DNA of 32,000 bases, from positions 90,001-122,000 of the forward strand of contig OZ246420.1 in assembly GCA_965231145.1 (NCBI GenBank), written 5' to 3'. This document shows, piece after piece, positions 2,329-31,229 of this stretch; within the stretch, counting starts at the first letter, position 1, and each line of letters begins with the position of its first letter. The translations under genes and the position numbers were made by a program. The notes under the pieces were generated by a model. The model was given only the letters and a program-made list of their open reading frames with translations, was not told where the DNA came from and searched no databases. Source of the stretch: Candidatus Saccharimonadota bacterium (GTDB lineage Bacteria; Patescibacteriota; Gracilibacteria; Absconditabacterales; Absconditicoccaceae).

Positions 2329-2367
2329 ACTGCTGTTTTACATTTTGAATTTTAAATTTTATACTCA

Positions 2368-5313: not shown

Positions 5314-5387
5314 TTTGCTGGCCAGCCAAATAAAGAAAAGCTCTTTATCTAGTATATCGGGCAAGCGCGCAAAAAGAAATTATAGAC

Positions 5388-6656: not shown

Positions 6657-6887
6657 TGCGAAATGCTAAATTCTCAACAACTTTAAGACATAAAACTGAA
6701 AACTAAAATCTTTTCTAAGGATATCTTCATTAATGATATTACCTATAAAAAATTAAGACTTAAGTTTTTAGGTTTGAGTTGTTGTTGAGTTTATATGTGA
6801 ATAAGGAGGAGTTTGCAAAGGAAAAACAGTTGTTGAAAATTATGATCTGAATACTTATTATCTCGCTACAACAAAAAACACGACACT

Positions 6888-7535: not shown

Positions 7536-7550
7536 AAAGTATATATAATT

Positions 7551-7582
7551 AAAAATCCGCAGTTTTTGCTGCGGATTTTTTT
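7551..7582. terminator. Bidirectional rho-independent terminator between convergent pyrE and gene 7592..9511
   Basis: The sequence is aaaaATCCGCAGtttttgCTGCGGATtttttt. It has a perfect 8-bp stem (7555..7562 with 7569..7576) and a 6-nt loop. An A-run lies on one side and a T-run on the other, so it works in both orientations. Confidence 0.85.
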
Positions 7583-7591
7583 GTCGTTAGA

Positions 7592-9511
7592 TTATTCGTC
7601 TTTCTCGAGTTCACCGTGCTCGATTTTGATCTGGAGTTGTTCAGAGGTCGCCTTAATGGTATTGAAGGTTTGTCCCATCTGTTTCCAGAGCATGGTGTTT
7701 TGTTCGATGAAGTGCTTTATGATGTTCATCATGTCGTTGTTCAGCGTCTTTGATCGATCATACGGAAGGCTATTGTCGATCGCTAATGTACGTGGAGAAC
7801 TGTCTTCGGTAGCGAGATTTGAGTTATTCTGCTTATCCTGGACAGGATTTGGGAGGACAAGGTATTTGTTTTTTTCCTGTCATATATTATTGTCATAATT
7901 TCCAGCGCGTGCGCGATCGGTTATCGCATCGTTTTGTGATTTTGTTTTCTGGATGTTCTCATCGACTACTTCTTTTTGCGCGTCAGAGTCATACATCGGC
8001 TTGAAGGCAAGGTTGACGTCATAAGAGACAAGTTTATTCATTTTCAGCTTATAGAGGCCAGTATCGAGAAATTCCTTTGGTTTGATATGTTTCATAAGCT
8101 GGCCTGAGTCTCTCATGGCGATCACGACTTTGTTGATTTCATCGATGATCTCTTCGATCGTCTTTAACTCTTTATCACTTTTCGCTACTTGTTCTTTTTT
8201 AACCGATATCTTACAGGTTTTACTTCCGAAAATGCCATTTGAGCTATATTGGGTGGTACAGTTACATTTTGTCTCACAGACCTCCTTATCGGCGTCGGGG
8301 AGGGATTCGCATTTTGCCATACACTTATTTGCTGCTTCGTTCATTGCCTCGCTGTTTTCTCCCTCGCCTCCTTCACCCAGACCTGATATTTGGTCTGCGA
8401 GGCTATCTCCTTCGCTATCGCCTTTCGATCCTTTCATAAACTGTTGGAGGGCGGACTGCACATTAATGTTTTTCATGAGCTGAGCGACCTTCTTTTCTGA
8501 CGCAAGGGCGTTCGTGGCTTGATTGCTACTCAGAGCGGTGCCACCATTGCTATTTGACGCTACAGACTCACCACCACACATAAGAGGGCTTGAGGTGCTG
8601 CTAGACCCCTTCTGAGAGGTTATTTGACTATTATATGTGCCTAATTGTTGGAGAGCAGAGATGTCGGTCTTATTTCTAGCTCCATTCTGCGAATTTAAAC
8701 CATTGGTTATCAGAGAAGAAATACCATTTTCTCATCCATTATTGCCTCATTCACTTCCTTCTCCTCATCCTATGTTATCCATATTGCCATTCTGATTGTT
8801 ACCAGAATCATAGAAACTTGTCTCCGGAGCCTTTTCGTTGGACTTGAATAAGATGTCACCGATTTTCTGGATATCGAGGAGAAGGTCAAATGGGCTGTCG
8901 TCAAGGGTGCCATTGAAAAAGATGTCATCGCCGTTGTTTACTGCGTCGAGGGTGTTTAGCTTGGCAGCTATGCTAAAACTGTTGTCAAACGCATCATAGA
9001 CAGTATTTCTACAAAGGGCGTATCTTTCCTGTGTATAGACTTCCTCGGTAGCATTTTTGCTGTTTTCGTCTGGCTGGACACACAGAGCTATCTTGGTACA
9101 ACTTTTGACTACTGCATCTCCGCTGATAGAAAATGCCTTCTTTTCGGTAGCTCCGGCAAACTTTGCGCTCAGCAGTGCATCGGTGCTTGCTATATTGGAA
9201 ATATCCTTTGCCTCGAGCGAGCAGCCATATTGGCTGTTAATATTTTGTGCAACCCCGCTAAATGTATCAAGATGGTTCTTGAGTGCATTTTTCCTTGCCA
9301 TCTTATGGGCGACATCATAGATATTTCCTTCTTCAGCGAGATTTTTCGTGAGAGAAGAGAAATCATTATCTTTGAGGTCTTCATAGGACTGCTGCATTTC
9401 TTCATCGACTGATTTTTCTTCACCATGCGTTGGTATGGAAAGCGCCAGGAAAATTCCTCCGAATAGGAGGATAAGGCTTTTGTATCCATATTTTCGCATT
9501 GCTATGCGCAT
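7592..9511 (-). CDS. Secreted protein of unknown function, 639 aa; last gene of the giant-protein operon
   Basis: ORFs 8765..9511 and 7880..8581 share a frame. The in-frame TGA are at 8765, 8747, 8732 and 7880, and the stop is TAA 7592..7594. The N-terminus MRIAMRKYGYKSLILLFGGIFLALSIPTHG is a signal peptide. The middle is Gly/Asn/Ser-rich (NIG-G-GEGSE-G-GNNG-G-ENG). There is a Cys block KCMAKCESLPDADKEVCETKCNC. I recognised no family. Confidence 0.85.
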
Positions 9512-9541
9512 AGTGAAAGCCGTGGGAAGGTAAAAGGTATG

Positions 9542-10696
9542 TTATTTGTCTCTTTGTTGGACATTTCTGAGTTTATAGTAGAGCTGATTGAGTGGTGTAT
9601 AGATACGGATAAGGGATTTTCTGAAATCCACGAGATCTTCATAGTATGCAAGTAGCCCTATATGTACTGGAAACGTGGTCTGCATATTTTGCAATGTCTT
9701 CTCCGTATAGAGGATGGCGTCAGCGCTTAGTGTGATCTCTTCGTTGAGACGTATCGTTTCCTGCTGTGCTTCCTGTGAGATATCGCTGAATGCGCGGAAT
9801 TCATTGTATTCGGGGTATTGGATGCTTTCCTGAGCAAGCGTAATAAAGAGTTTATAGAAGAGGAGTTCGTTATAGAGAAGGTTATGGAAGCTGTCCCATG
9901 CGAGCGTGTTTTGATTGTCGAATGAGCAGACAACGAACTGTTTTGCATCTTTTTCACACTCCTTTGACTGGTTTTTGAGGAGTTTTTCCGCGTCTATGTA
10001 TTTCGTCTTGTCTGACATTTCCTTCACGTTTTCTATGTACTCTTTGAGGACGTTTCTTGTTTCCGGGTGGTTACAGGCAGCTTCTTTATCAGTTCCTTCC
10101 TTGTCGCTCATATAAAGCGTATCCTTCTTCTTACAGATGCTTTCTCCCGAGCCGAAGTATGTATCAGAAAATGCTTTTATGGCCTCGTCGGTAGAATCAG
10201 ACTGATTACTATAAAGTTGTACCAGTTTCACCTTACTTATATCGTTGATAACGAGCGCAAAGAGCTTTGGAAGGAAGAGAGCAAAGTCACATGAAGTCAT
10301 GTCTCCATCTCGTTTGCAGTCTTCTACTTTAAGGTCTTCCCGGTCATATTCCTTGGTAAACTCTTTGATCTTTTCCATCTCGACGTCGCCTTTTGAACAG
10401 AGCAAGCCGACAAAAAACGATGATTGCGGATCATAATAACGTCATTTGGCGCTAGGATCTGGGAAGCCCTGAGACTTTGACATGGCTGTACAGTATGATT
10501 CGATGAGTCCTTTTCTGCTCTTATTTTCCTGGAGCGTAGAAGAGATGCTTTTCATCATGTTTGTCGTAAATCACTGCTTCGTCGTGTCAGCTGTATATGC
10601 CTCTTTGGAAGATTTCCAAAATATCAGTGCGATGATCGCACCGAGGCAAATGATACTGATAGACACTCTACGGAGTGATGTTGATGAATAACGCAT
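9542..10696 (-). CDS. N-terminally anchored Cys-rich protein of unknown function, 384 aa
   Basis: ATG 10694..10696 gives MRYSSTSLRRVSISIICLGAIIALIFW, a transmembrane anchor. The in-frame TGA are at 10571 and 10442, and the stop is TAA 9542..9544. The start lies 7 nt after the TAA of the upstream gene. Confidence 0.8.
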
Positions 10697-12170: not shown

Positions 12171-13424
12171 TTAATCTAATCATTGGAGGAGTGATCCAAG
12201 GCCTCACAAGCTACCGCCTCAACCACCACCCATTCATCCAAAAAGGCCTCATAGCCCGGCTAGTCAACCTCAGCCGCCTTCATCATCGCCTCCGTCTTCG
12301 CTTCCATCTCATAGAGACGGGAGGAGTCATTTGAGCTTGCTGAGTCATCCAAGTTTTGAAGTCGCTCATCCGAGGCTACCTCATAGACCTTTTCCTCATT
12401 TGAGGAGTCATTTTAACTTGTCAAGTCCGCCTAGTTTGCCCAATGCTCACTCTCCATCTCCGTTACCTCCGAATGTATCGGTGAGGTTTGATAAACCACC
12501 TCAACCACCAGCTCCTCATCCTATGCCTCCAAATCCTCCCGGTGTTCCTCATGCGCCTCATAGTTTGCTTTCCGGTGTTGAACATTCTTTAGTGCCGGCT
12601 TGTATTTTACCATTTACTGCAGAGAAGGTCTCGTTGAAATGAGAGAATTTATCTACTAACACTCATCGTCTTGTTTCGAGCAGATAGCTCTGGGTGTAGG
12701 TTTTCCATGTGTCCTTCATAAAGGTGTTTGCTTTTCTTGCCATCAGTAGCTGTATGTATGTCATCTCTTCGTCGATACGTCTTCTTGAGAGATCTTCACA
12801 GGCCTTTTGGTCATAGCGAGAGTCCAGGTCGCTGGAAACGAGGAAAAATTTACGAGCGACACATGATGACTGAATACATACTGCGGTGTATCTTGCTGAA
12901 AGTGGAAGGGAATCATAGTTGCTAATTTCACAACTTTCATTGTCTACTTTAACTCAACGCCACTTTGCTGGCTCCCAGATCTCAACAAATTTCGTTTGTA
13001 TGCTGACAGGTAACTTTCCTGTTCCAACGTCTGTTCGTTCTTTGACAGCATCTTTCCATTCTTTTGCTTTTGAGTCTTCGCTTCCTTCTACTTTGTTATC
13101 CAGTTTAAAGAAGCCTTTACTGATCAACTGGTCGAAGGCATAAGGACTTTCAGGATTATCTCTGTTTTCTTGAGCGCTTTCACAGCCTTCAGTGAGGATT
13201 TCTTGCTGACAGCAATATGCCTTAAGATTATCCATAGCAGTGTGCATGTCGTCAGTGCTAAGAGGCTTGTCGCTTTTGAGTTTCAGATTGTCTATAGCAT
13301 CTTTTGGTTCATGTATCACCAAGCTACAATCATACAACGTATCCGCAAAAAGAGGGGCGCTCCGTATGGAGAGCGCTCCTATGATGGTCAAACCTATGAG
13401 CTTTCGGATAGCATTGTGTTTCAT
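12171..13424 (-). CDS. Secreted protein of unknown function with an extreme Gly-rich, TGA-dense C-terminal tail, 417 aa
   Basis: ATG 13422..13424 gives MKHNAIRKLIGLTIIGALSIRSAPLFA|DT. The standard-code ORF stops at TGA 12954, but the frame stays open to TAA 12171..12173, with 21 TGA in total. Without read-through there would be an ~800-nt gap in an otherwise tightly packed operon. Confidence 0.8.
12174..12563 (-). repeat. Gly-rich low-complexity tail (~130 codons) in which 19 codons are TGA, containing a duplicated KLGGL(D/S)KLKGLL unit
   Basis: With TGA read as G the tail reads KLGGAGGTPGGFGGIGGGAGGGGGLSNLTDTFGGNGDGEGALGKLGGLDKLKGLLKGGKGLGGSLGGATSKLGGLSKLKGLLPSLGDGSEDGGDDEGGGGGLAGLGGLFGGMGGGGGGSLGGLGSLLQGLD. 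The DNA repeat gaggagtcatttgagcttg (12321) recurs as gaggagtcattttaacttg (12402). Confidence 0.8.
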
Positions 13425-13429: not shown

Positions 13430-16400
13430 CTATGGCAACGGCTGAGGGATAAAGGTAGTGTTTCCTATTTCTTTTCCTTGAAGATCATAGAAGGTGATAG
13501 TGATATTACGATCTTTATAAGAGTATGTTCATCGATATTGATTTTTATAGGTATCTGGTAGTCGGATGTCTCATTTCGTGCTTATATAGATGTGACAGGT
13601 ATCCGCCTGAGCAATACATGTGCCATTGCTAAATCCATGCGCATATCCATCTGCTACTTTTTGTGGCTTCCAGAGATTAGTATCGACGACTATAGTATTT
13701 AGCGCTGTCTTTCCTGCGTACGAGAGAGAGAATAGTACAATGCCTGTCCTTTTCTCTTTGATAAGTACACGAGGTGTATTTGCAGTAAACGAAACTACTG
13801 TATCTATAGACTCTTTAAAGTAGCTATCAATAGATATTTCACCACTTTCTTTATCTACTGCTCCAATACGTGTTCAGCTGCTATTGTGCAGGTCGATGAG
13901 TGCGCTTTTGACAAATACGCCTCATGAGAGTGACAGTTGATTGAATCCAAGAGGGAACTGAGATGTGATCATATTGTCTTTCCCTTTACCAGTTAATATA
14001 GATCGGATGCCATCTCTTTCTCTTTCAAAGAGTATGCTACTCTTATCTTGTCATACAGATACTGTTGTCTGTATAACGTTTTCATTATTCATCGGTTCAC
14101 TGATGTCAGTAATATTTACTTGAGGCTGTTTCCATTGTATCTTGATCGTATAAGTTGCTATATTGTCGTTTTGATCGATGGCATTGATTTGCCACGTCTC
14201 TACATCTTCACCACGATATGAGAGCGATGCGAGCGTGTTTGCTCAGGTGTCAGCTTGCGAACTTCCGTCAGCAAAGGTAATTGCATTGCCTTTGACGCCA
14301 CTGCTGTCACGCCATTGGACGACGACTCCATAGTCATTTCCTATAACAGGTGACAGCGTATATCATTGCCCATCGATAGTTTTGCTTTCTACTCTTATGA
14401 GGGCTACCGTTGGTGTTGGTCAGAGGTCATCACCTGCCAATTGAGAGCTGGCTACCTCCTGGTGTGATCGAGGAGAAGACTTTTCAAGCAGTGCTCATCT
14501 ATTGAGCGTTCTATATGAGAGCTTCGCAAGAGACATGTATTGCCGTTGTCTTGGAAGTCCGTCCAGAGAGACAGAGAGAGTTTCTTCTTCCGGATTGAAG
14601 TACTGAATGCTGAGTATGCTCTTGTCGTTTACTAAGTCGCTTACTCTCTTTTGTCCAAATATTTCATCGTAGAGGAAGACTCATTGGAGATCTGTATTTT
14701 CTGGTAAGATGAGTACATATTTTCTCGTATCTTTATTAGAGCGGTGCATATATCTTGCTTCTACAGAGTTATTAATTTGTAAGATATAGCCTTGTCTATT
14801 ATCGTTGTTCCAGCGAAGTTGTATACTGTCATATCTTTGTCCATCGAGTGAGAATGCTTGTGGTGCGCTCCTTTCTGACCATATTTTGAACATGCTTCAT
14901 CCTATGCTCAATCGCCCATCTCTTTCTACCGCCTTCGCAATATCTGCAGGCGAAGAGAATGTCGGAGTAACGTAGAGACGCGTGAATGTTGTACCGTTGT
15001 TCGCTGGCACGGGTTGGCTGTATTTTATCCGGATTTGTTTGTTGTCCCACATGATGATATCGTCTGTAGCATCCCCGTTGAGATCAGTGCGAGACTGATG
15101 TGCTTGGAGCGTTGCTATATTGTCTTGTCTGTCGACAACATTTACCATCTCACCAGACGTGTTTTTTACAAAGACACCCTGTATGTACTGGCTGATATCA
15201 GGCTGGATCGTGAGAGTGCTTGTTGTGCTATGTGCATGGGCGGTATGTGATGCGTCCATAGTGCTAGTTACTGCAGCAGCGAGAAGAGGTTTTTTCTCTG
15301 CGTCTTTCTCAGTGTTACTCACCATCTCCAGTCCGTTGTCTATAGTAGTAATAGTCTTTTCTACATAGCTTCTTGTTTCGTTGTATGTGAGGAGCGACAT
15401 ATTGAGATCGGTTGGCCCATAGGTGTCGAGCGCATTTGCAAAGCCAGTCATTACTTTCTTGTTGAGTTCAAGGTAGCTCTTCATCGGATTTGGCTCATCT
15501 TTAATTGCTTTGATGATAGATTTGTCTGCAGTAAAGAGCGAACTTCCGAGTGTTGATGACTCTGTATCACTACTTACCAGGGTTGTCTGTAGCGATGTAA
15601 CGAAAGAGTCATAGTCATGGTTGATCTTGTCCTGCATAGATGAGATATCATTTTTTATGCGGTCTATGCGAGACTGAGCCTGATGGTTGACAGCATCTAC
15701 ACCCTCGATATTAGCCGCTGTATTGCTTGGAGTTGAGAGGAGTGCAATCACATGACGAAGGGTTCTTTTTCTCTCTAATGATGTATCAGCTTCCAGTAGT
15801 GCGTGTGCCTGTGTAAGCAGGTCTGTGCGAGCTTGGGCAGCATTGTCATAGCTTAGATCCCAGAGATGAGGAGATGTGAAGCTCTGAAGTGTGTTGGTAA
15901 TGCCTCCAGCTGTGTTTCCTCATCCAGCGCTTTCATCACTGACGTTTTTGATGATAGGATTGCTGTCCTTGTTTACTTGCTCTGCGTACTCTTCGAGCGT
16001 CTTATAGATTTCATCAAAGTTAAGCTGCATATTAATATAGGTGTCGACATGTATATCTGACCCCTGAACTGGTGGTTTGATCTTTGTAACACTGATAGAG
16101 TCAAACGGCTCTACCTTCCAAGTTCTCTGTGTCAGTTGTTCTACTCTTGTTTTGACTCACTTTTCTCCGACCATGCCGATCCCTCATTTTACGATACAGA
16201 AGATCTTTGCGATATATTCAGCATATTGGAGAGTGGCGATAATCTCTGGTGTGATTTTTGGAATCTTTGGTGCAGGCGGAAGGTTTGGCATGTCGAGTTC
16301 CACATTTGGTGTGAATGAAGGAAGCTCAGGAAGTTTTGGTGGTTCAGGAATTTCTGGTGCGCTTGGGATCGTAACGCTCAGCTGTCACTGGACACCTGCG

Positions 16401-19400
16401 GATGGTGCTGGTGGGATGTCTGGAATTTGTGGGAGAGGAATAGGCTTTGGTACAAAATTGAATTTTGGTAGAAGTATATCCATACCCATATTTATATGAG
16501 ACAGGTCGATGAACAGATGTGGCATCCTAAATGGAGGTATTGGGAACACTGGTAATGGAATGCAGAGGATGCTGAGTGTGCATGCATAGAAATCGTAATT
16601 GTCTACCTTACACTTTCCGCATTTTGTTTTCCAATTTACTGAGTAGTCTATAAGAGCCTGCCATGTTTTGATAGAACTTATGTTTTGCGTCATACCATTG
16701 ACGTACTGGTCGAACTTTCTTGAGTTTTTCTGTAGCCATTCAGTCAGGTTGTTTGTGAACTTAGAGACAGTATCAGACGCTTCCGTCAAATATCTTTGTG
16801 AAGCTCCCAGCCATTTGTCTAGTTCTTGAGGGAACTCCTTATATTTATCGAGTATTTCAATGTTCTTTTTTACTGTTTTTATCAGCTCTTCGTTTTTGCT
16901 CGTTATACTTCCGCCGCCAGCGCTATTTCGATCCTGTGCGGTCTTCTCATTTCTTTGGAGCCAATTATTTAAGTATGCTTTATATCTGACGATATCTTCT
17001 TGGGCTATGAAAGGCACTTGTACATTGATGTTTTTTGTGCTGATATTGATAAGCGGTACGTTTTCAAAGAGTGTTGAGAGTGCATCAAAAGGATTAGAAA
17101 CATCATTGTCATTGTTTCTCATACCTTCTTGTGTGAAGAGTTTTTGTGATACGTCTTGTCTTGATGATGGAGTCGGTTGATTCTTTTCTTCTTCAGGTTC
17201 CTCGTCGTAGAGCGCTCTTATCTTCTTCAGTGATACATCATCAAATCCCTTAAAGAGCGATGACATCTCAGGCATGTATACGTTGACTGAAACGGTTGTA
17301 AGATTGTTAATGATATACCTTATTTGTGGATCGAGCCGGTTCTTCATAAGACATTTGACGAGTCCTTTTACGTCTCATCCCTGTACTTCAAGTTTGACTT
17401 GTTCTCCTACTTTGAGTGTCTCACTATCCTGATTTCCTCCTCCTTCCCCACCTTCGCTTATATCTTCTATGGTGGGAGTAGTATTGAAATTAACAGAGCG
17501 CCCGTCGTATGAGCCGTCATTTTCTCCCTCAGCTGAAACCGATGGAATAACTTCTTTTATCTTACCCATGATGTCATCCATCATACCTCCGCCTTGTCCT
17601 TGACCTCATACAAGATTTGAAATCATCTTAAACGGAGAACCAGATTTTCATCATTTTAGTTGAGGTGTGCTGCATGCTCCTCCTTCTGCTGCGTCATATT
17701 GCCGCTGTTCAAGAGCGGGTCTTGCGTCTCCTGGAGTAATCTGTGCTTCATCTTTTTTCGCTGTTACCACACAATTTCCCGAGATATGTTTTACTGGATT
17801 TTGTAGGCTTGCTCCGGCTGCGTATGAGCCATAACACATAGCAACACCTTCCTTATTTGTTATAGCTGGTGAGTCATATACTCTTACATTTGATGGATAA
17901 CTACCTCCGCCCGCCCAGTAGAAACCATCCGTAGGAGACTTCTGACCATATGGAGCAGGTACGTCATATGCTCCAGGGCGGATAGTTCCTGGATAGAAGA
18001 GAGATGGAAGACCTTTGTCGTCAGTCAATTTACATCAGAAAACATTGTAGGTTCCTGGAGAGAGGAATGCTACATTAAATGGCGCTTGTGTTCATTGTTG
18101 AGCCATAGTTTTTTTGTATCCACCTTTTTCAGCTTGGAATCCCTTACAAAATCCTTGCACAGCTCCATCTACTTGTCTTTCTGTATCTTGAGTCATGCTT
18201 GTCAGTTGTGGATTGTTGCTACTCATATCAAGACTACCATTTTCAGAGAGGGACTTGTTGTCCCACTTTTCAAGTATCTGATCCATGCCAGGCATCTTGC
18301 TGATATCCGGATTGCTACCTTGTGATGCACCTTTGATCTTGCTTTGTATGTCGGTGAGCTTTGATGTCAGCGCAGAACTTTGTTGCTTTTGCATTTCTTG
18401 CATCTTTGGTGCAAGGTCGGTAAACGACTGGGTAAAGTTTTTTGTTCCATTTGATGTAAACTGTTCAAATCATTGCTGGCAGCTATCGGTAGAATGTGTT
18501 TTTATGTCAGTTGCCTGATCTCCGTTAATGTTACCGAGAGAAATATGTACTAATTTTGGTGCCTTATATTTGAGAACTTCGCTGAACGTTACGCTTTGTC
18601 ATCCTTTAAGTGAAATATTATCTATCATGTACTGATAGCCATTTTCCATATTCCAGTTTACGGTTGAGCCTGCTGGTAGACTTCCTTTGTTCCAGCTTGG
18701 TATTTCTCCTTCACTATTTTTACTAATTCTCCATGGTCACTTGATGTCATGCAGATAGGTAACCATTGTATCGCTTTTTGCTTCAATGGTTGTCTTCACG
18801 CGTACTTCTTCACCATCTACCAATGGTCCTGAAGATGGTTTTACTCTTTCATATTGTTTATATGTTACCACAGGAGATGTCTCGTCCAGCATGGTGCCTG
18901 GCATATATGCTATGGTTTCCAGGCTGTTAGCCGGTTCGTATGACGGTAAGGTGCTGATAGGTGATGCAGAATATTGCATGAGAGTCGGTAGCCCACTATC
19001 TATCATGCTTTGTATATTAAATCCAGAGAAGTCACTTTCTGTTCCCTTGAGGAGATTTTGTATCTGTGGATCAGCAGCAAGAGGGCTATCAGGGCTTTCT
19101 TCATTTACTTCTGGAGGAAGAGAAAGTCACTGCCAGTGAACCAGGCTGTTGTCGTATATCTTTTCATTTTCACTCAAAGTGACGCCATATGATTTGACTA
19201 ATTTAATATGATCTTCTTGTCTTGTCTTTCGCTCGCTATCACAGGTAACCTTATTTTTTGAAATGTAATTATCTCCTGCAGAAGTGCGTCCACCATAGAA
19301 AATCTTAATGTTGCCTGCGGTATCATTTGTAACGATATCGACCTTATTGTCTCCGTCCATATCATGCACAAAAAACTCATATGCATGAGCGATGCTTTGA

Positions 19401-22400
19401 TCTCAACCTGGTATATCTAAACAGACTTGCTTTCCATCGACATCTACAGTTCAACCATTGTTTTTATAGACTCTCAGTTTATCATGAGATGTCTGGATGA
19501 TGATATCCTCATAGCTATCTCCATTGGCATCGCCAGCAAAGGCATTTTTGATGCCATCATCAATAACCATAAGCATTCACAAGTCCTTATAAGGATCTTG
19601 CCCGCCTTTGTTTTTCAGAATCCTTGCAGATCAGTCGGAATATGTTACCAACAGATCCTTTTGTCCATCTTTGTCTACATCAAGAGGAATAGTTTTTGAG
19701 ATGCTTTTCTCTGTTTCTGTGAAAACTGTTTTTCATTGACCTCCATCGTAATTTGTTCCCGCAATTGTTGTGTTTTCGCTTTGACGTCCAAGCAGAGGAT
19801 CGCCAAGCGTAATAAGGAAAGGAGACGCTCCATGCTGAGTAGCTTTTCCTACTTTGTCTCCTTCGGCAAAAGCGGTTGCTGCATGAAAAGTGTTTTTCCG
19901 GTTTGTATTGGTATCAGTATCGACAGATTGCTCAATACCTCACTTCCATGGAGAAGATGAACCAAGAGGCACAGCATTTTTATCATAGATCATCCATCCG
20001 CGGCTGCTATTTGTTGATCCACCAAGCCAGATTGATTCAAGGCCGATGCTGTCTTCTAGATGAATATTACTGGTGTTTATAGTTGCGTGGATGCGTAGTG
20101 TTCCTACTATTTTTCCTTGTATTTTTACATTCCATACAGTATCCCCATTTGTATATTGATTGCTGTTTACTATCTCAGCGCTATTACCTGTAGATGAGTT
20201 TATGGACCATACAGGCGATCCATTGATCACGATAGTATTGTTTATGATCTCGTTGGTTTCAATAACGCTGTCTGTTTGGCGAGCCGTATAGAGAAGAGTG
20301 TTTTCGCCAAATGATTCATCTGCTGTTCCGGCTCTGAGAGTTAATGAGCTCGCGCTTCCTAATGCAATATATCCTTTTGTATTGAGATCATATGTCAACA
20401 CATTGTCTCTTTTGGTGAGACGTATATCTGATGCATCATAGATCTGACCATTGTTGTTGATACGAAGCAGTGCAGGGAGGATATTGTTTGGGTTGGTGAG
20501 AAGTGTTGTTACGGCAAGTGCTTTATCTGACTTTGTGAGGATGTTCTGCGCTTCATTTGATTGCTGTGAGAAGTAGTTCCATCTATTGCCTCGGTCGCTT
20601 CCAGCAAGTATCATATACATAGCATTGAGATTGTCTGTTTTCCAGAAAGGAGAAAGTATCGTTATCTTTTTTGCATCAGGCAACTGTGCCTCTGGTGCTA
20701 CTCATGCAAGAGTAGCATAAATATATTGTGTTCCTGCGGCTTTCTCGCTGCTAAGAGTAAATGGAGCGCTTCCGTTGGTTGCCGTAGTTACTTGCCCACT
20801 TGATGATCCATTTATCTTGATACCACCAATCGTATGGAGGTTGATGCTTACAGGAGCATCAATAGGGTTGTTCCATCTATCATATGCAAACACCTGTCCG
20901 CTGGTGTTTTTTTCAGCCAAGAAACTATCGGGTGCTTGGATGCCCACACGATATGGCTTTGCAGGATGGATAGTCACAGGTATAGTTTTTAGAGGAAGGC
21001 CTGGAATTTCTAGCGTGAGAGTGTCTTGTCCTGCTTGAAATGAAGGATAAAGGATAATCGTAGCAACGCCACCTTTGATGGTAAATGAAGATTGCTCTGA
21101 AAATTCTTTTGCGGTTACTCTTTGACCGTTAAGTGTATAGCTACTTTCTTTTACTCTTCCTGGAAGGAGGAGTCACTGAGTACTCTTGATGACACCATGT
21201 GTTTCTAAGGGTTTCTTATCTGGCGTAGTAAGTGTCAGTACGATCCTTGGAACCGCATTTTCCTGTAGCTGGTCAACGCCGTTTTGATTGCGGAAAAAAG
21301 CTGATGTGCTTTCAGGAAGAGTGATGTCTATGTGGGATGTATTTACTGTATTATGCTTCACCTCGAGGATTCATTCGGTGAGCGAGATTGTTTTTCTGAT
21401 AGGCGAGAGAGAGTCAGAAGAAATTGGTGTCAGTAGCAGCTCAACTTCTGCAGACGCAGAAGGAACGTCGCTCAAATCCAAGACGAACATCTCATTTTTA
21501 TCAAAACGTTGGAGTTCTATACCTGTCGTGATATTGCCGTTGGTAATGATTTTCCCTTGAGAAGAAGAGAGACGGAAGGTGTTTGTACTTTGTTCAACAG
21601 CATTTCAGTATGCATCATATCACATCACTGAGAAAGGCATCTCAGATCTTTTGAGTATTTTATCTGTCGGCGTAATAATAGTCGCAGTGACAAGAGGCCC
21701 AGCGATAACAGGAACGATAAGTTTTTTCTCTGTACAACGAACGTTTTGACAGATCTTTACTGTGAGGATACTTGCTCCAATATTTTTGCCCGCAAGAGCT
21801 ACTTTCAATGTACGAGGGGTCTTGTAAAGATCTCCCTGGAATGCATACTCAGCATTACACACATTTCTTCCTTCGATGATCGGACAGTTTTCTCCCGTTC
21901 CTGAGATACGGATATTAAGATTGCCGCTGTCCTTTAAACTTGCGATCGTCAGAGTTGCTCCACTTGTGTTGTCTACACTGAGAGTATTCTTATTGAGTCT
22001 CGCTGTAAGAGTGTTATCAAACGCCGCAATCAATGTTTGTGCTTCATCAGAAAGAGCCCCAAGAGATGAGTTTGTAAGAGACCTCCAAGTTGGGTTAAGT
22101 TCTTCTACGTTATCTCCTAGGGTGACATCGGTGTCTTTAAATTGCTGTGATATAAGTACAGGTCATTTTGCATTTGAGAAATTTACTTTCACTACATCAG
22201 AAATAGTTTGTTCCTGCATAGATTTCATCCAGCATCCTAGAGAAGCTGGCCATTGAAGCAGAGGTGTTGTGCCATCTGTATCAATACCACATTTTTTATC
22301 TCTTTCTGTTGCCTGCATATCAAGAGCCGCATTGACCGCGTCAGTGCTTGAAATCTCTGCCGTTGCTGCGAGTTTCTGTTGTTCTATATTGTTGATAACA

Positions 22401-25111
22401 GCAGGAGCTATTGTATTTTTCAGAGCATCATTACCATCTGAGTTGATATAGACAAGCTCATAACCACTTGCCTGATATCATGGGACAGATCCCATAGAAG
22501 GATTGTCTTGTTTCGTGATATAATTTTTCGTCACGTTGGCTATTTTCTTGTTAACGTCAAATGAGTGTTCGTTGTTCTTCAGATCGGTAAGAAGATCTGT
22601 TGAAGATGGTTTTTCAGATCGTCCAAGATTTTGCCAATAAAGTACATCAGCGATCGCTTTGATCGTCTCTTCACCGAGGGCGGTTATGAAAAAGTCTTCA
22701 GGAAGAAGAGCGTATGAGCGACTCTTAGGTGTCGCGTATGGATTGACTACAGCCAGTTTGTCAAATGCGATGCTCTTTGGCGCATAGTGTGTCGCAGCTG
22801 CGCTATTTTCTGTTGAGAGAGTTACATTTATAGCACTTACTTTCTGCTTGAGATATGCCTTTATACTCTCTGTTATCTCCTGAGGTGATTGGAGGGTTAG
22901 TTTTTCTCATTGTTTCTTATAGACAGAAACATTGTAGATATTTGGATAGTCAAATTTTACTGTACCACCACCTATACCTTTAAATGCAACAAACCTTGCG
23001 CTATCGATAGGTCTGTCAGCAGTAAGAGGACTCATGCCTTTCACTTCTTCAGGTGTCGGTGATGAGTGCGACTCAAGAGTGTCTATTGTTTTGTACACAT
23101 AATTCTCACCACACTCATGCGTACTTGTGTTGGTGTTTGTATTTGTCACAAAAATATGATCATTGTAATCAGCAGTTGCGACCTTAGAGAAATATTCAAC
23201 TTCTATAGGGGCCTTGATCGGATGACCATTGTATCGATTTTCATTGACCTCTCCTGGAGGTACTATTTCTCAACATATTACTCGTGGGGCAATGCGAAAC
23301 TGTTGTGTTCTATGTAGGAGTGAGTTATTGAGTTCATCAAGAAAGAAAATATCTGTATTCATTTTTTTAAGAGTGAGCTTTGATCCCGCTATGTCGTAGA
23401 CGGGTCATCCAATGGTTGTATCAAAGCGCGGATTCCATGCCATCTTTGGATCGTTTTGCTTGAGCTGGAGCGTGTTCCCATCTACATTGAGAGGAGTCAT
23501 GCCTCCTCGGTATTTGTTTACAAAATCATCAAGTGTTTGTCTGTCGTTACACTTTCTTGCATTGTAGAGTTCGATATCTTTAGATATAAGTTCGATATTA
23601 TAACCTCTAGAGCTTTCTACCTGTCTTGAAGAGATACCATATGAAGCACCTATGGATCTTGCTGTATAGTCCAATGGTATATCGTCCTGCTGACCTTGAG
23701 TAGCATAATTATATGATGTCAGGTTTTGTCGACTTCATATGTTTTTCCATGTACCACGATAGATAGAGATGTCATTGGTAGATGTTACATCAAAAGCACT
23801 CTTTCCAAAATAGAAATTTTCATATCTTCCCACGAGTTTCTTTGGTACAAAATCCGGTGGTAAAACTGGTGGTACAGGAACACACTCATACTCTTCGTAG
23901 ATTAGTGGAATAGGAATATGAAGAGCATAGTTACCTGTTTGTAGTTTTTCGTAGAGAGCCTTTTCAAGTACGCTATTTGCATCGAACAGCGCCGTGCTTG
24001 TTAAGGTGTCTTTCACCACAGTTTTTTTGATATGACTATCAACGTTGGCGGCGTTCCATCTTCCACCTGCAATAATGTTTTGATCGATGTTTGTAAGATA
24101 CTCGGGTGCGAAGAGAGAAGTATATGGCTGTACGAGAGAAAGCAACGCTGTTCACATCATAAGGGTTGGTATCTTTGCGGTCTCGTTTCCTAATTTCTCA
24201 AGCGTTTCAGCGCTATCCGCGGCGATAGCTGTTAATCACTTTTTCCATTTGTCTATTTCTGCTTTATAAGTACTTCATTCAGTTGATAACTGTGAGTAGG
24301 ATTCTTCATTTGGAGAAAGCTTTTGAGCGTCATCACCTATAAGCGATAGGGCGTTATTATTTGCAGCGTCTTTGAAGTAGTCGAATATAAGATTTGTATA
24401 CCTGTGATAAGTGATGTCTTCGTGAAAAAGAAAGTTGTTAATATAACCAGAGAGAAACTGATCAGCAAAATATTTTTTTAATCCAATAAAATCATCGTAC
24501 CGTATTTTGGTAGATGTGTAATTTATTGGATTTTGTTTGTAGTTTCTCAGCTTGTCGAAAAACTTAGTGTATTGATCATCCTGATCTTCAAAGTTGATCA
24601 TGCTTTGCCATATATCTGCCTTGTGATCGCCATCGTCCTCAGTAACAAAATAGGTAGAAGCTGGATCGTATACATAACTAGGTTTCTCAAGGTCTGTATA
24701 TGGGTATATGCTTGGATAGATATAGCTATTTTCACGTATAACCGGCAATGGGATATCTCCTATGAGGATAGTTCCTATAAGAGAAGAAGGGTTTTTTTGG
24801 TTTCCTTCTTGGTAAAGATTTTCTAATATCTTCCATATGTCATAGGCCTGAAAATTGTTTTTATCGATAGGCAAGAGGATGGCTTTTGTATTGTTACTTT
24901 GCGACTGGAGATATTCCTGAGCATACCAATTTATGTTTTCTTTATGCTTATCGTAAATGTTCTTCTCTACGAATACGGCAATGATATTTTCGTGTATTTC
25001 TTCTGCAGCATATACGTTGCTAGAAAAGCCAAAAATCCACTGTGTGAACGAGTGGGAAAAGAAGTACACGCAAAGCAATATACCTATGGCTGTTTTTGTT
25101 TTCAACGACAT
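13430..25111 (-). CDS. Giant secreted/anchored multidomain surface protein, 3,893 aa, with FG-GAP/integrin-like and Ig-like repeats and Pro-rich and Gly-rich linkers
   Basis: Sixteen listed minus-strand ORFs from 14681..14893 to 24275..25132 all lie in the same frame. I translated every gap between them and the whole of 13430..14681. There are 45 in-frame TGA and no TAA/TAG until TAG 13430..13432. ATG 25109..25111 gives MSLKTKTAIGILLCVYFFSHSFTQWIFGFSSNVYA|AEE. An in-frame TAG lies upstream at 25145..25147. Confidence 0.85.
19270..19800 (-). other. FG-GAP/VCBS-like (integrin alpha beta-propeller type) repeats inside the giant protein
   Basis: Three Ca-binding-type loops occur: DVDKDGQKD (19655..19681), GDANGDSYED (19505..19534) and HDMDGDNKVD (19337..19363). 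They are spaced ~50-57 aa apart. Each is followed by a hydrophobic strand and then an N-x-G turn (ILKNKGG, VYKNNG-G, KIFYGG). Confidence 0.6.
20702..21730 (-). other. Tandem bacterial Ig-like (Big_1/invasin-type) repeats inside the giant protein (tentative)
   Basis: The repeats read ...PFSVM-G-YDAY-G-NAVEQSTNTFRLSSSQGKI... and ...GQVFAYDRWNNPIDAPVSINLHTIGGIKINGSSSGQVTTATNGSAPFTLSSEKAAGTQYIYATLA. They follow the pattern V-x-a-x-D-x-y-G-N-P-v ... T-d-x-n-G-x-A ... G ... v-x-A typical of these domains. Confidence 0.5.
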
Positions 25112-25224
25112 GGCGAACACCCTGATAATCAATAAGATAACCGGCTATTTATTCTTTCTATGCAAATATAAATTGATTGCAAGATCTTGCGAAGCCAATA
25201 CCATTTAAATGATATATAATATAT

Positions 25225-25254
25225 AAAAAAGTCTCCTTATAGAGAGGAGACTTT
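25225..25254 (-). terminator. Rho-independent terminator of gene 25276..26961, separating it from the giant-protein operon
   Basis: The minus-strand RNA reads aaaGUCUCC-ucucuauaa-GGAGACuuu, followed by more U (plus-strand a-run 25225..25230). The GC core is 6 bp and extends to 9 bp with A:U pairs. It lies 22 nt downstream of TAA 25276..25278. Confidence 0.8.
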
Positions 25255-25275
25255 CTTGAAAAGAAAATAAGTGTT

Positions 25276-26961
25276 TTATATGCCGTTGATAGAGAAGAAG
25301 TTTTCCATGTCTGTCATGTAGTCGTCATAGAGACCCTGAAGTGTTTGATCTTCTGGAGATAATCTCAGTGCGTTTCTTGTGTCAAGGAATGGGATGTATA
25401 TATCACTACAAAACTCTTTCACGTCGTCGAGGTTTATGCCCATGCTTCTTCCTTGTACACACATATAGTAAGCAATACCTTGTGTTGTAGTTTCATCATC
25501 GCTATCTCTATTGTTCTCAAGAATATCAAGTCTTGCAGAAAGATCAGCTATAGTGTCTCTATTTGCGATGTACTGATCGTACATATCTTGAATAGTATCA
25601 ATGTCAGCGTAGTCGAGTCTGAGATCTTCTACTGTGTCATTGAGAGCTTTCACTGCTTCGATCACGAGAGCCATGATGTTAGGATACTGTACAGACTTCT
25701 TTCCATCCGGTTGCGTCTTTACGAGCTGTGGAAATACTGCTTCTACTTCCTGCGCGAGAAGACCTACATCATGTCTTCCGTTTGCTATCCAGTCGAACGT
25801 ATATCCATTGAGATCCATAATTTTATCTAGGGGATTTGTGATCTTTACGATATTTTCTTTCAGGGTCTCATCAGAGATGATATATACTGAGTCTGTGAGG
25901 ATGTCTCCTTCTACATGAAGCGTTGCTCCTGGAGTTGAGGTTCCGATACCAACATCTCCACCGCTATAATATATCACGCCAGCTCATCCATCTCTCCAGT
26001 AACCACTAGCTGTTACTGATGATGGCATAACGACCAGGTTACCCAATGCGTCAACTCCAAGATTTCTTACTCACAATCCACCGTATGAACTGAAACGAAC
26101 CTTACCCACAACGTCAAGCGCTCCTTCCGGAGTATAGTTGTTGATACCTACGCGAGTACCTGTTACAAAGAATGCAGTCGCTGCAGCTGGAGTAGTACTA
26201 CCATCTGGATAGAGTATCTCACCACTTGTATCTACTCTGAAAGGTCCTTTTACGTGAAGTTTGGCAAGAGGAGTATCAAGACCTACTCCAACATTTCCAT
26301 CATTATCAGGATAGAAAGTTCCATAGTATATATCATAAGGATTTCAAGGAGAAACGTGCCATAAAGATGCTCCAGATGCGCTAAATGAACCGCCTCCTGA
26401 AAACGCATCTCCACATATAATCGCTCCTGTAGAAGTCCATCCCATAAGCACGCCTGACACACCACAACTTCCTGCTGAAATAATAGGCACGCATGTAGGT
26501 ACTCCTGAAGCTACACCCACAAGTACTTCACCGGCAGGACAGCTTACTGTTGTCGTACCACCTCCTGAACCCGCACCTCCTGTGAGGACGAACGAGAGCA
26601 TTTCAGTTGTGATAGAACCTGGTGCAATGTCTCCGCTTCCGATAAGTCCTCTCGTGATATACCCAAGAGAGTTAAGTCTTAGTACTCCTTCCGTTGGGCC
26701 ACCTAAAGAGCCGCTGTCCACCCAGATACCACCTGTACCAAGTACGATTTTAGTTGATCCTGATGGAGATCCATCTGTAGTGATGCGAAGTTCTCTGAAC
26801 GTACCAATAACATTGTTAATGGCGCTTTCGATAGCAAGATCGGCGTGAGTAAATGAAAGAGACAGTCACGCAAGTCCTATAAGAGCACACACCATAGTTA
26901 TTCCCTTTAGCAGAGGATGCTTTGGCATATGCTTTGTAAGATCTGTTTTGTTGTATAGCAT
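25276..26961 (-). CDS. Secreted tail-fibre-like protein with C-terminal peptidase-S74 intramolecular chaperone domain, 561 aa
   Basis: ORFs 26344..26721 and 25276..25977 share a frame, with in-frame TGA at 26866, 26344, 26071 and 25984. The stop is TAA 25276..25278. The start is ATG 26959..26961, or ATG 26926..26928 which gives MPKHPLLKGITMVCALIGLA-G-LSLSFTHA|DLA. The unit (N/D/R)VG(V/I)G-x(2)-TP-x(3)-LHV-x-G is repeated. The protein then reads ISDETLKENIVKITNPLDKIMDLNGYTFDWIANGRHDVGLLAQEVEAVFPQLV...VQYPNIMALVIEAVKALN. Confidence 0.85.
25620..25875 (-). other. Peptidase_S74-type intramolecular chaperone (auto-cleaving) domain of gene 25276..26961
   Basis: The signature S-D-x-x-L-K-E-N-I ... 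G-Y-x-F-x-W ... G-(L/V)-x-A-Q-E-V-E ... P-x-L-V ... Y-x-x-(I/L) ... A-(V/I)-K-x-L is known from phage tail-fibre and endosialidase C-terminal chaperones. The candidate cleavage Ser codon is 25873..25875. Confidence 0.7.
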
Positions 26962-27012
26962 GATGTAGAGAATATATTAATAAAGAAGTTTAATTATGTT
27001 GATTAATCTTTC

Positions 27013-30000
27013 TTATCTAGGTATGGATATGCCGTTGTCTCTGAAGAAGGTTTGAAGATTTATCAAAGCTAGATTATAAGCGCCTTCTAAATCTCTATTT
27101 TTTGGAGCACTCTCATGATTTTCCTTTGCTGTTTGGTAGGTTGGATAGATGGTGTTACATAGATTGTCGATATTTTGTGGATTGAGGCCATGTTCATCTG
27201 TTCCATTACATATTTCTTCTGAGAGAAGTTCAATCGCTGATTTTTTGCTTGTTGGTTGCTTAGGATTTCTTGCGTCCCATGCTTCTCCATTTTCGAGGGA
27301 GGCGATACGCAGTTCAAGTATCGCTATCTGATCTTGCTGTGCTTCCAGTCTTGCTGCTCATGCATTCATCATCTTTGCATCGAGTTCTTTAAGTGCAGAG
27401 ATAATCCCCGCAAGCAGATTTGGATATTCAACAGCGCGTATGGTTGTATCGCCTTGTCACTGCTGTCATTGTTGTTGTCACTGCTGGGTTTGTCATAAAC
27501 CACCTTGTGCTGGTGATGAAGGAGTTCATCCTATATCTCTGCTGCTTACCGTAAATGATCTTACGGCGCTTGGATAGATAGAGGCAATTTCTTGAGCTAC
27601 AAGTCCTACATCATCTCTTTGAGAACGAATCCATTTAAATGTATATCCTGTCAATGATAGTATATTGCTAAGGCCATTGGATATCTTGTTGATATTTTTT
27701 TTCACATTTCGATCTGATACTATATATGTCGCATCCGTAAGGATATCTCCATTGACATGAAGAGTAGCACCAGGAGTATCAGTCCCAATACCTACAGATC
27801 ATCCGCTGTATGAGAGTATGCTATTTCAAGCGTATAGATTTTCATCCCATTGTTCTCAGAGTACTGACATAGAAGATCATGTCGTGAGAAGTTCTCCCCA
27901 AGAATTAGCTCCTAAATATGAATATCCTGGTGTCAATACCGAGCGGAATAATATGTTACCTACAACATGAAATGCAGTGTAAGGTGTTTCGGTATTTATA
28001 CCAACCCTAGATCATATCACAAAAATATTAGCTCAGTTATAAGGGATCGTTGTTGCTCCGATAACTCATGCGCCACCACCTGGAGGAGTAAGGGCGGCAT
28101 TTGGAGCGCTTGCTCCTGTGAAAGGAATGTAAGTTGGCATTTGAATACCAAACGAATGATATAGCGTTGTTCCTCCTGAGTCAAATGTATCATGACAAAG
28201 TGATGTGCCCGAAGGTGTGATTTCTATAGTCATGTCTACAGCTGGTTGAACAGCAGGAGCGTCGTATGGAGGATAGAGTATGCTTACGCCCAATAATTCG
28301 TTTGCCTGTGTTGTAGGATGAACGATGGAGCAATCTTCTGTCATAGGGTCTAGGTCGCAAGAACAATTTACAGAACTTATGCTTGTAGACGTTTGTATAA
28401 CAGGGCTTGTAAGTGCGCGAAGGTATCATATGAGTGTTCAGCTAGCAGGTGACTGATATGCATCATAGTATGGAACGCCCCCCAGTAGATAATTATCGTA
28501 ACATGTTCGTATAGACGTGCTAAGCATTGCTCCCGTTGGTTGATATGCATCTACGATCGTTCCGCTTCCGGCTCAACAGTTTTGAGTGGTTATGTCGACA
28601 TCGCAATCACATCTTGGAGTGTTTGGTATTCAGCTTGGATTTGATATGGTTCTTGAAAAATTGTACGTATATCATAAAAACCCACCAGCAGTATCAGAGT
28701 ATTGATATGGTGCTTGTATTAATCCATTATTGTCTACTCTAAATGTAGCAGCTGTGCTGAATCCTGTTCCTCCTGTTCCAGAAACTCATCCTGTAGTGAG
28801 GATAGTTCCATATCTTCTAAAGAAGTGTCCAGGAAAGTATTCCATGTCTGTATATGCCAATCAGCTTATACCTACATCCATACACATCGGTCCATCGTCA
28901 CCATTTGTGAAGCCATATCCACAATCAAAAGAGTCTGGATCCAAATCACATGCACATCTCGGAAGAAGTTGTCCAACCGGAGGATAAATAGGAGCTCCAG
29001 ATCCTGTATATTCTCCACGAATAATGTTTGGCACAGGACTATACGTAAGTGTTCCTCCTACTGGAGATCAGCTACCAGTATGATATGTTACCGTAAGTCT
29101 ATGCTCTACAGAAGTGTTGGTTGTTATGTTGAAATCAAAACAAGCGTTTAGTCCTGGATGAATCCATATTGCCGGAGATCACTGTATTGTTGTGGATGGA
29201 CTTGAACATGCAGCATCTGTTGCATACATGTTTGTGTCACATGGGCAGCGGAAACCAGCTGCGAGCCCCTCTACAAAACCGTACTCATACTCGAGACTGG
29301 TAGCGCCTCAAGTACTTCCTTCACATACCATGCCAAGATCAAATTCCATTCATCCGTACCACTGAGATAGATACTCAATACCCCCAGACGTGAATGATTC
29401 AGTACACTGCGAATCTCCTTCGTTATCATTTGTGGCAATGTATTCCATAGGATACGAAGGGTATGGTCCTGTTCCACCAGCATAACGAAGACATTTTCCG
29501 GGAGTTGTTGGATCTTCTGTTTCACATGCACACATTGGCAATCCTGCTGAAACAACGCTCGTATAACCAGGACTTCACATAGGGTATTCTCCTGCGAGTT
29601 GCACGAAAGCGTAGCCAGTTGACGGAACCAGATTACAAGCACACGAACTATTTGTCACTGTTTTATGAACATATTGTAATCCTTCTGATCGGTGTTCAAG
29701 TTGTACTACTCATCATGACATATAGAGTTGTACACACTGTTCTCCATAAAAGCTCCCCGTCATCTGGGCATTGAGGAAAATTGATCATGTAGCAAAAACA
29801 AGACACTTCCCCGGATACGCCGGATCAGGATTGAAACAATTACAAGGCGTCATAGATGCAAAATCCGAAAAATATGGAGAGCTTGGTGTTATAGGAGCAT
29901 CCCCAAGAGTGTAGACATATCAGTGGACAGTTGTTGACACACTACTTCATGACCCTGCTTCACAGAGAGTTGTGTTGGAAGGATAAGAAACATGAAGCTT

Positions 30001-30762: not shown

Positions 30763-31056
30763 TGATTCAATGGATAAAACAAATTACTTTATGCTATGTA
30801 ATGCTGCTTTCATACAAAATTGCTACTGAAAATATATAGCAAGTGTGAAATTGAGTAACCAAAAAACAGAAAATATTATATAACCATACGCGCAGAGAGC
30901 GAGTGCTTCTCTAGCCATAGTTCAATCGCTATTTTGTTTTTTAAGATAAAATAGAATAAAAATTGATTGTTTGATAACTCTTTTTTGTCGCAGTAATACT
31001 GTTTTTTCTTGATTATTTAGTGATGTATTTTATAACGGTATGATTATATATTATAT

Positions 31057-31084: not shown

Positions 31085-31229
31085 ATAAAAGCGCGTTCCA
31101 TTTCGGTCGAATGCGTGGTTTCTTAACAGCTTACTCTTTCGTTCAAGGTTGCCGGCAAGCTTCCTTGGATAAATTTATGATAAAAAATTTTTCAAACAAA
31201 ACATTCAAAAAAACATTAAATTTGAGAAT

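Follow-up and report, generated by a model that had tools for sequence, protein, structure and literature searches.

Absconditabacteria and Gracilibacteria are tiny host-dependent bacteria, and some of them are predatory. Long genes hidden in the genomes of candidate phyla radiation bacteria that have recoded TGA were known before this analysis, as were giant surface proteins in Absconditabacteria. For the largest proteins of the Absconditicoccaceae, a surface location and integrin-type domains have been predicted (PMC8080830; PMC13059738). In Vampirococcus, the fibrous cell surface and host recognition have been credited to giant proteins that include a hypothetical protein of 4,163 amino acids (PMC8080830), and VCBS proteins of Gracilibacteria have been detected in a metaproteome (PMC11452946). 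Here we describe a gene of 3,893 codons in a 32,000-nucleotide stretch of an Absconditicoccaceae genome (contig OZ246420.1, positions 90,001 to 122,000; hereafter the window, in whose own numbering all positions are given). We think it likely that the product of this giant gene is a non-repetitive, Sec-exported multidomain envelope protein that belongs to a lineage-wide family, and that the gene heads a string in which it is followed by a partner gene, P1, and by genes for three further exported proteins.

The closest described systems in lineage and size class are the Vampirococcus lugosii protein VAMP_16_20 (4,163 amino acids) and the large surface proteins of Strigamonas, which we liken to the giant protein by their descriptions only. 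Both have been predicted to lie in the membrane or at the cell surface, both are reported with integrin-type domains, and both have been proposed to take part in host recognition (PMC8080830, PMC13059738). The papers on these organisms treat giant proteins collectively and do not define the present family, its P1 partner or its conserved core.

Giant adhesins of Gram-negative bacteria, such as SiiE and those of the LapA/RTX type, are built from repeats and carry Ca2+-binding and immunoglobulin-like (Ig-like) elements at the cell surface. Substrates of type I secretion carry a C-terminal signal. The window protein resembles SiiE/LapA-type adhesins in its size class and in its predicted Ca2+-binding and Ig-like elements. 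Unlike the SiiE/LapA/RTX type, it has no tandem repeats and no RTX nonapeptide (GGxGxD), it begins with an N-terminal leader, and it does not vary in the number of repeats but is kept as an orthologue. As for wall anchoring of the Gram-positive type, the window protein has neither an LPXTG-like motif nor an SLH match, and SLH domains are seen only in remote relatives.

The giant gene, its genetic code and its family

The reverse complement of positions 13430 to 25111 (11,682 nucleotides) is a single open frame that runs from an ATG at 25109-25111 to a TAG at 13430-13432. Within it are 45 in-frame TGA codons, no TAA and no further TAG, which gives a protein of 3,893 residues. The base composition predicts about 173 TAA or TAG codons in 3,893 codons, and the probability of finding none is about 5e-76. 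A first-pass annotation, made from the sequence alone, had proposed one continuous gene under translation table 25, hidden as more than 40 fragments, and both statements agree with these counts. Under the standard code, the longest open reading frame in the region has 341 amino acids and the frame falls apart into 46 pieces at its 45 TGA codons. Only if TAA and TAG alone are taken as stops do long open reading frames tile the reverse strand of the whole window (3,905, 1,257, 1,004, 663, 650 and 567 codons, among others).

The closest orthologues were located through the downstream gene P1 and not by the first homologue search. One of these (L079) lies in assembly GCA_030429145.1 on the 936,577-bp contig JAUIDC010000001.1, where NCBI annotates it as one gene for a protein of 3,898 amino acids. 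The other (L080) comes from JGI metagenome 3300020156. Identity to the window protein is 53.8% and 55.5%, respectively, over about 3,260 aligned residues. The alignments are nearly without gaps and are rich in insertions and deletions only in a Gly/acidic linker and at residues 3251-3300. Because orthologues from two independent assemblies align in this way, a frameshift and a chimeric join are ruled out, the two faults that, according to the first-pass annotation, would have refuted a single gene. Conservation also runs on across every TGA in both the family and the orthologue alignments. On the evidence of the open frame, the end-to-end homology and these orthologue alignments, positions 13430..25111 (reverse strand) are one intact gene, with 3,893 codons and a TAG stop, of a code-25 bacterium from the SR1/Absconditabacteria-Gracilibacteria radiation.

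Two independent tests show that TGA is read as Gly, not as Trp, in the giant gene, as the first-pass annotation had assumed. The first test uses homologues translated with code 4, in which a W stands for TGA or TGG and a G for GGN only. In the columns of the 45 TGA codons of the window, these homologues have 25% G and 26% W, and in the columns of its GGN codons they have 25% G and 22% W. The columns of TGG codons have 2% G and 32% W, and the background for G is 3.5%. The second test uses codon alignments with the two orthologues. TGA codons of the window stand opposite GGN 24 times in L079 and 28 times in L080, opposite TGA seven and six times, and opposite TGG in neither, and TGG codons of the window are never opposite TGA or GGN. 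There are no tRNA genes in the window.

Most public translations of the family (P0001-P0040) contain 2-8% Trp because code 4 turns TGA-encoded Gly into Trp. Trp frequencies near 0.4-1% are found in only about 16 of 56 homologues, which were either translated with table 25 or come from standard-code organisms. TGA is seemingly the main glycine codon in some lineages, that of P0026 (8.4% W and 0.7% G) among them. In the record for L080 (positions 1-9996), the giant gene is annotated as at least 15 short standard-code genes, one of them bearing an FG-GAP match, which makes this record a public case of the fragmented state described in the first-pass annotation. Public copies of the family are thus mostly mistranslated, with TGA as Trp, or fragmented, so that family analyses need re-translation with table 25.

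The protein search returned 56 homologues, about 40 of which are full length (3,700-5,100 amino acids; 25-32% identity). A few are named as VCBS repeat-containing proteins of Candidatus Gracilibacteria or Absconditicoccaceae (P0017 and P0019, for example). Colinearity extends over the full length of the family alignment, and conservation is highest at window residues 51-250, 701-750, 1751-2000, 2351-2450 and 2751-3050. When one genome of each GTDB species was scanned, 70 loci were detected, one in each genome hit, with giant open reading frames of about 3,600-5,037 amino acids where these are complete. Nearly all of the titled records are from SR1/Absconditabacteria, Gracilibacteria, 'Peribacteria' or the Patescibacteria group, including human oral SR1 HOT-345; some titles read just 'uncultured bacterium', and one is labelled Muribaculaceae.

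A wider distribution is seen with the core module, the most conserved part of the protein. Residues 2580-2908 of the window protein match 388 clusters at 50% identity, 244 of them at E<=1e-10. In full-length hits the module lies about 2,200-4,150 residues into proteins of 3,400-5,900 amino acids, and the short hits look like fragments. Some of the remote relatives are standard-code proteins that carry SLH, Big_1 and Invasin_D3 domains (PF02369/PF09134 in precomputed annotation). The remote relatives share with the window protein three anchor regions in the same order, namely the N-terminal domain, the FG-GAP region and the core module.

By sequence comparison, the giant protein belongs to a lineage-wide orthologous family of giant envelope proteins, 3,600-5,900 residues long and already annotated, and the window gene adds one divergent member to it (at most 55% identity to anything found). 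GenBank already contains orthologues annotated as single genes, so a gene of this type has been seen before. The impression of the first-pass annotation that most of the residues match nothing recognizable is accurate for curated domains, but a large family of full-length homologues exists.

Both the VCBS-named proteins and the roughly 40 unnamed homologues share with the window protein the leader, the N-terminal domain, the FG-GAP region, a Cys/Pro-rich block, the core module and the C-terminal region, and P1 lies downstream of their genes. Many family members carry long, mostly helical insertions near residues 690 and 2700, whereas the window protein has neither and is therefore 200-700 amino acids shorter than these. 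L079 and L080 are closer still. They encode giant proteins of near-equal length, and the downstream order is the same, with P1, P2, P3, P4, a metallophosphoesterase gene, TM-B and TM-A. In contrast to both, the window has an extra Gly-rich tail of about 130 amino acids on P1, and in it a phosphoribosyltransferase gene of opposite orientation separates P4 from the metallophosphoesterase gene.

The P1 reading frame (12171..13424, reverse strand) begins five nucleotides after the TAG of the giant gene. Its product of 417 amino acids includes an N-terminal hydrophobic leader, a Cys-rich domain of about 290 amino acids with several invariant cysteines, and the Gly-rich tail. In a profile search, a P1 homologue was found directly 3' of the giant gene at 49 of the 62 loci that have at least 900 nucleotides of downstream sequence. 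Six more loci are added when overlapping starts or broken giant reading frames are allowed, which brings the range to 49-55 of 62, or about 85% of loci. The giant gene and P1 form a conserved bicistronic pair. P1 homologues with 48-58% identity carry no annotation, and P1 has no match in Pfam, NCBIfam or, by profile, the PDB.

Domain architecture of the giant protein

Residues 1-35 (25007..25111, reverse strand) have the features of an export signal or signal anchor, with an initial MSLKTK, a hydrophobic stretch and the sequence NVYA/AEE. The Ala at the -1 position (A34) is invariant in the family alignment. This leader scores under the threshold of the hydrophobic-segment scan and is seen by direct reading of the sequence. 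Besides the leader, the scan gave no convincing transmembrane helix in the giant protein. The signal or anchor sequence noted in the first-pass annotation thus corresponds to a hydrophobic leader that ends in a conserved V-Y-A/A-E site.

Residues 39-200 (24512..24997, reverse strand) are predicted to form an alpha/beta domain that contains the sequence LIGDIPLPV at 24740-24766. The domain was modelled with AlphaFold2 from a TGA-free segment (residues 30-278) and a 32-sequence alignment, and the model has a mean predicted local distance difference test score (pLDDT) of 74.6, with values of about 90 for model residues 10-170. The top Foldseek matches in the PDB are gingipain R (1cvr) and mature RgpB (4ief_D), with a probability of 1.00 and a root-mean-square deviation of 3.1-3.5 Å over 155-158 columns, followed by caspases and a C11 protease. 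For these same gingipain matches, E is only 0.035-0.042 and the query-normalized template modelling score is 0.39. Generic alpha/beta folds reach similar E-values, but with much worse root-mean-square deviations.

An hhalign comparison of the family profile of this domain with RgpB aligns residues 17-93 of the modelled segment with RgpB residues 14-84 and sets LIGD-IPLPV on LLVGDHKDIPA in subdomain A, in an alignment that is not significant (probability 0.4%, E 0.16). A beta-alpha-beta-alpha-beta unit that ends in LIGD-IPLPV parallels the RgpB sequence LLVGDHKDIPA. Taken together, the fold and motif results suggest that the LIGD-IP motif reflects a real but weak likeness to the N-terminal stretch of the gingipain catalytic domain, which is not itself catalytic. 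The first-pass annotation had instead seen a block resembling the gingipain propeptide. This identification does not hold, because the nearest fold is that of the mature catalytic domain of gingipain R and no C25 model matches.

A possible Ig-like domain of the Big_1/invasin D3 type covers residues 1406-1472 (20696..20896, reverse strand). Both Pfam matches to this stretch are below their cut-offs (Invasin_D3, E 1.2e-3, 19.8 bits against a cut-off of 33; Big_1, E 4.2e-3, 17.6 bits against 34.9). The giant protein contains no tandem array of Big_1 or Invasin_D3 domains above the curated cut-off, and no internal or tandem repeats were detected in it by self-BLAST or Tandem Repeats Finder. Of the Ig-like repeats previously noted, one sub-threshold domain match is therefore left and the repetition is not.

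The FG-GAP/VCBS region at residues 1750-2000 (19112..19864, reverse strand) is identified by a Pfam FG-GAP_3 match above cut-off (E 3.2e-8, 34.5 bits against 26.9, in two stretches) and by a motif scan, and it coincides with a conservation peak and with one of the three anchor regions. Three motifs that resemble Ca2+-binding loops of the DxDxDG type lie at residues 1811 (DVDKDGQKD), 1861 (DANGDSYED) and 1917 (DMDGDNKVD). These features bear out the FG-GAP loops reported in the first-pass annotation, and only two or three such repeats can be recognized by sequence, against the seven blades of an integrin-type FG-GAP beta-propeller. FG-GAP_3 is also the only Pfam model that scores above its cut-off in searches with the whole protein and with nine segments of it. 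Sequence and profile searches of the PDB with the whole protein, with the profile of the N-terminal domain (gingipain chains being among the targets) and with a 4,074-position profile of the whole family gave no match.

Downstream of the FG-GAP region is a conserved hydrophobic block rich in Cys, Pro and Gly (residues 2300-2450; 17762..18214, reverse strand; PFNVAFLSPG...VRVY...GNC). The block has invariant N, P, R, T and C columns and a conservation peak at residues 2351-2450, and it has no match in Pfam or the PDB. It is followed by a variable Gly/acidic linker (residues 2502-2564; 17420..17608, reverse strand), where conservation and occupancy in the family are lowest; the linker had been placed at about 17400..17610 before.

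The core module, which is rich in predicted long helices, occupies residues 2580-3050 (15962..17374, reverse strand). It is the part with the highest family conservation, with 50-59% identity across the family and a peak at residues 2751-3050, and it is common to all remote relatives. The module includes a KCGKC...C...C cluster at 16610-16624, an EQLTQRTW motif, and invariant Cys and Pro columns. A Pro-rich segment that had been listed in the first-pass annotation is present at residues 2846-2953 (16253-16576). This segment is not a spacer, as it has many invariant prolines and lies within the most conserved module. An AlphaFold2 model of the equivalent segment of P0019, translated with code 25, has a pLDDT of only 44 and consists mostly of very long helices. 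The C-terminal region (residues 3300-3893; 13433..15214, reverse strand) is defined by colinear homology. It has no Pfam match and no sorting signal of the LPXTG or RTX kind, and the motif scan of the giant protein found no LPXTG-like, RTX (GGxGxD) or RGD motif.

Possible roles at the cell envelope

The reading that we favor assigns a separate task to each part of the giant protein. The leader would direct Sec-dependent export, and it might be cleaved after VYA35 or be retained as a membrane anchor. The exported polypeptide would then form a long surface structure. The N-terminal two thirds, with the gingipain-like non-catalytic domain, at least one Ig-like module and the Ca2+-binding FG-GAP region, would face outward and bind ligands on another cell. 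The Cys/Pro-rich helical core (residues 2300-3050), probably together with P1, would hold the protein in the envelope or assemble it. The SLH cell-wall-binding domains found in some remote relatives are in favor of an envelope location. We infer export, surface location and a function in adhesion or host contact from the sequence, and such a function is plausible and agrees with published speculation about the giant proteins of related organisms (PMC8080830, PMC13059738).

Several observations weigh against this interpretation. Export and location are read from sequence features, and apart from the leader the protein shows no anchor, be it a clear transmembrane helix, an LPXTG motif or an SLH domain (by Pfam). 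No fold can be assigned to more than 85% of the residues, and the model of the core module is poor (pLDDT 44). The gingipain-like assignment depends on a marginal Foldseek E-value (0.035) and on an hhalign alignment that is not significant. Finally, the protein is conserved, colinear and non-repetitive, occurs in one copy in each genome hit and lacks a hypervariable region. A core structural or machine-like role would account for this pattern no less well than a classical diversifying adhesin would.

The last point leads to the main alternative, which we regard as possible but rather unlikely and in which the giant protein is a housekeeping envelope scaffold, whether S-layer-like, wall-organizing or determining cell shape, that builds the cell's own fibrous coat with P1 and is not a host-specific adhesin. 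In favor of a scaffold are the single colinear orthologue in each of at least 70 species-level genomes, the lack of repeats and of a hypervariable segment, a uniform 40-70% identity to close relatives, the conserved partner gene and the SLH domains in remote relatives. Giant proteins have also been credited with the fibrous surface of Vampirococcus (PMC8080830). However, Ig modules of the invasin type, like FG-GAP/VCBS domains, usually belong to proteins that bind ligands, and no self-assembly or lattice-forming domain is recognizable in the giant protein. A scaffold would also be compatible with a role in host contact, and so the two readings are not mutually exclusive.

Comparisons among Absconditabacteria and Gracilibacteria have revealed a very small shared gene set that consists mostly of housekeeping genes (PMC13059738). 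Given such a small set, a protein of about 4,000 residues without repeats, which at least 70 species-level genomes retain in colinear form and nearly always together with P1, is a good candidate for a core part of the cell surface. In the literature that we searched, we did not find descriptions of the P1 partner, of the three-anchor architecture held in common with standard-code relatives, of the gingipain-type N-terminal domain or of the invariant Cys/Pro-rich core. A bolder proposal, which we consider doubtful, is that the giant protein and P1, possibly with P2-P4, form a conserved, lineage-defining envelope machine whose core is a new fold for contact with, or penetration of, the host envelope. 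If this were true, the machine would be one of only a handful of gene sets outside housekeeping that persist throughout the radiation of Absconditabacteria, Gracilibacteria and Peregrinibacteria-type bacteria.

Less probable again is a device for attack or feeding, in which the Cys/Pro-rich hydrophobic segments and the long-helix core insert into or breach the envelope of the prey and P1-P4 are accessory proteins. Relatives in culture prey on their hosts and drain them (PMC8080830), the most conserved part of the giant protein combines hydrophobic conserved blocks with very long predicted helices, and the gene is grouped with those of four exported orphan proteins in several lineages. Yet searches of Pfam, NCBIfam and the PDB revealed no similarity to a pore-former, a fusogen or a secretion system, and the structure model of the core is of low confidence. 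In addition, matches to T4SS_pilin near giant genes are weak and unconfirmed, and the linkage of TM-A and TM-B is to rplJ rather than to the giant gene.

We consider it highly improbable that the N-terminal domain is an active cysteine protease of the C25 (gingipain-like) type, even though its best Foldseek matches are gingipain R, caspases and a C11 protease. No match to Peptidase_C25 or Propeptide_C25 of Pfam was found in the whole protein or in the 32 sequences of the domain alignment, and the family profile is without a PDB hit. The alignment has no conserved Cys that could complete a catalytic dyad, and the conserved His of the family (in EIWHG) is replaced by Gln in the window protein. 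Moreover, the aligned stretch of RgpB (residues 14-84) is well before the catalytic residues, which we take to be His211 and Cys244. In contrast to gingipain R, then, the domain is without significant sequence or profile similarity to that protein, without the catalytic His and Cys and without a Pfam C25 match. There is moderate support for a domain that is gingipain-like but non-catalytic.

The notion that the region instead holds several standard-code genes or pseudogene fragments, is read with TGA as Trp (code 4) or is an assembly chimera, toward which the prevalence of code 4 in public pipelines and the orthologue broken into at least 15 fragments by one pipeline (JGI 3300020156) might point, is refuted by the absence of TAA and TAG, the uninterrupted conservation at every TGA, the alignment of TGA with GGN and never with TGG, the nearly gap-free orthologues of two assemblies and the annotation of one of these orthologues as a single gene.

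Neighboring genes

The upstream boundary of the transcription unit appears to lie at 25165..25257 (reverse strand), where a terminator-like hairpin (25225-25257) follows the preceding gene and a promoter-like sequence, TTCGCA-17-TATATT, occupies 25165-25193. Both were called by consensus scans and direct reading, and they are pattern matches only.

The tail of P1 (12171-12560, reverse strand) is a Gly-rich segment of low complexity, about 130 amino acids long (GGAGGTPGGFGGIGGG...), and holds most of the 22 TGA codons of P1. Relatives of P1 (253-302 amino acids) end just before the tail, so that the tail is an extension specific to this lineage, and the reassigned codon makes up much of it.

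P1 is followed by three tightly packed genes for orphan proteins, P2 (10704-12149), P3 (9542-10756) and P4 (7592-9511), all on the reverse strand and with abutting or overlapping reading frames. The hydrophobic-segment scan found N-terminal hydrophobic segments in the products of P1-P4, and P2-P4 are thus presumably exported as well. The P2-P4 block follows the giant gene and P1 in three other loci (L001, L079 and L080), and in a further one (L002) it is nearby but inverted. Pfam and NCBIfam gave no hits for P2-P4. Among all the neighboring genes, these two databases identified only a metallophosphoesterase, a phosphoribosyltransferase and two Peptidase_S74 domains.

The phosphoribosyltransferase gene is PyrE-like and lies at 6687-7535 on the forward strand, between P4 and the metallophosphoesterase gene. 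It appears to be a local insertion, because the two genes that flank it are directly adjacent in L001, L079 and L080.

Positions 349-6665 (reverse strand) carry the metallophosphoesterase gene and two paralogous genes for proteins with multiple transmembrane segments, TM-B (with a Pro/Thr-rich tail) and TM-A. The same block is present in four other loci (L077-L080), and it has no family assignment beyond Metallophos. In relatives, the block lies directly upstream of rplJ-rplL, even where there is no giant gene within 10 kb on either side, and the beginning of rplJ can be seen at the left edge of the window (about 1-60, reverse strand). Because the block is kept beside rplJ/rplL without the giant gene, we do not count TM-A, TM-B and the metallophosphoesterase as parts of a system specific to the giant gene.

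We also considered a type IV secretion-like system tied to the giant gene, which was suggested by TM-A and TM-B and by weak T4SS_pilin hits. These weak matches to T4SS_pilin (PF18895) occur a few kilobases from the giant gene in two distant lineages (L002, 24715-25188; L005, 26185-26766), and none was seen in the window. This candidate was rejected, given that TM-A, TM-B and the metallophosphoesterase are kept beside rplJ/rplL even without a giant gene within 10 kb.

At the right end of the window, positions 31173-32000 (forward strand) hold the start of a gene for a putative secreted subtilase-like (S8) protein, as judged by the motifs VGVIDGG and GHGT. It has a signal peptide, and no TGA occurs in its 276 codons.

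Two genes directly upstream of the giant gene (25276-26976 and 27013-30783, reverse strand) encode proteins of 561 and 1,249 amino acids with N-terminal hydrophobic leaders, and the larger gene contains 42 TGA codons. Near the C-terminus, each protein has a Peptidase_S74 domain (chaperone of endosialidase; E 4e-17 and 1e-11, respectively). From these domains, the two proteins look like self-cleaving fibers of the phage tail-fiber type that are used as cellular surface proteins.

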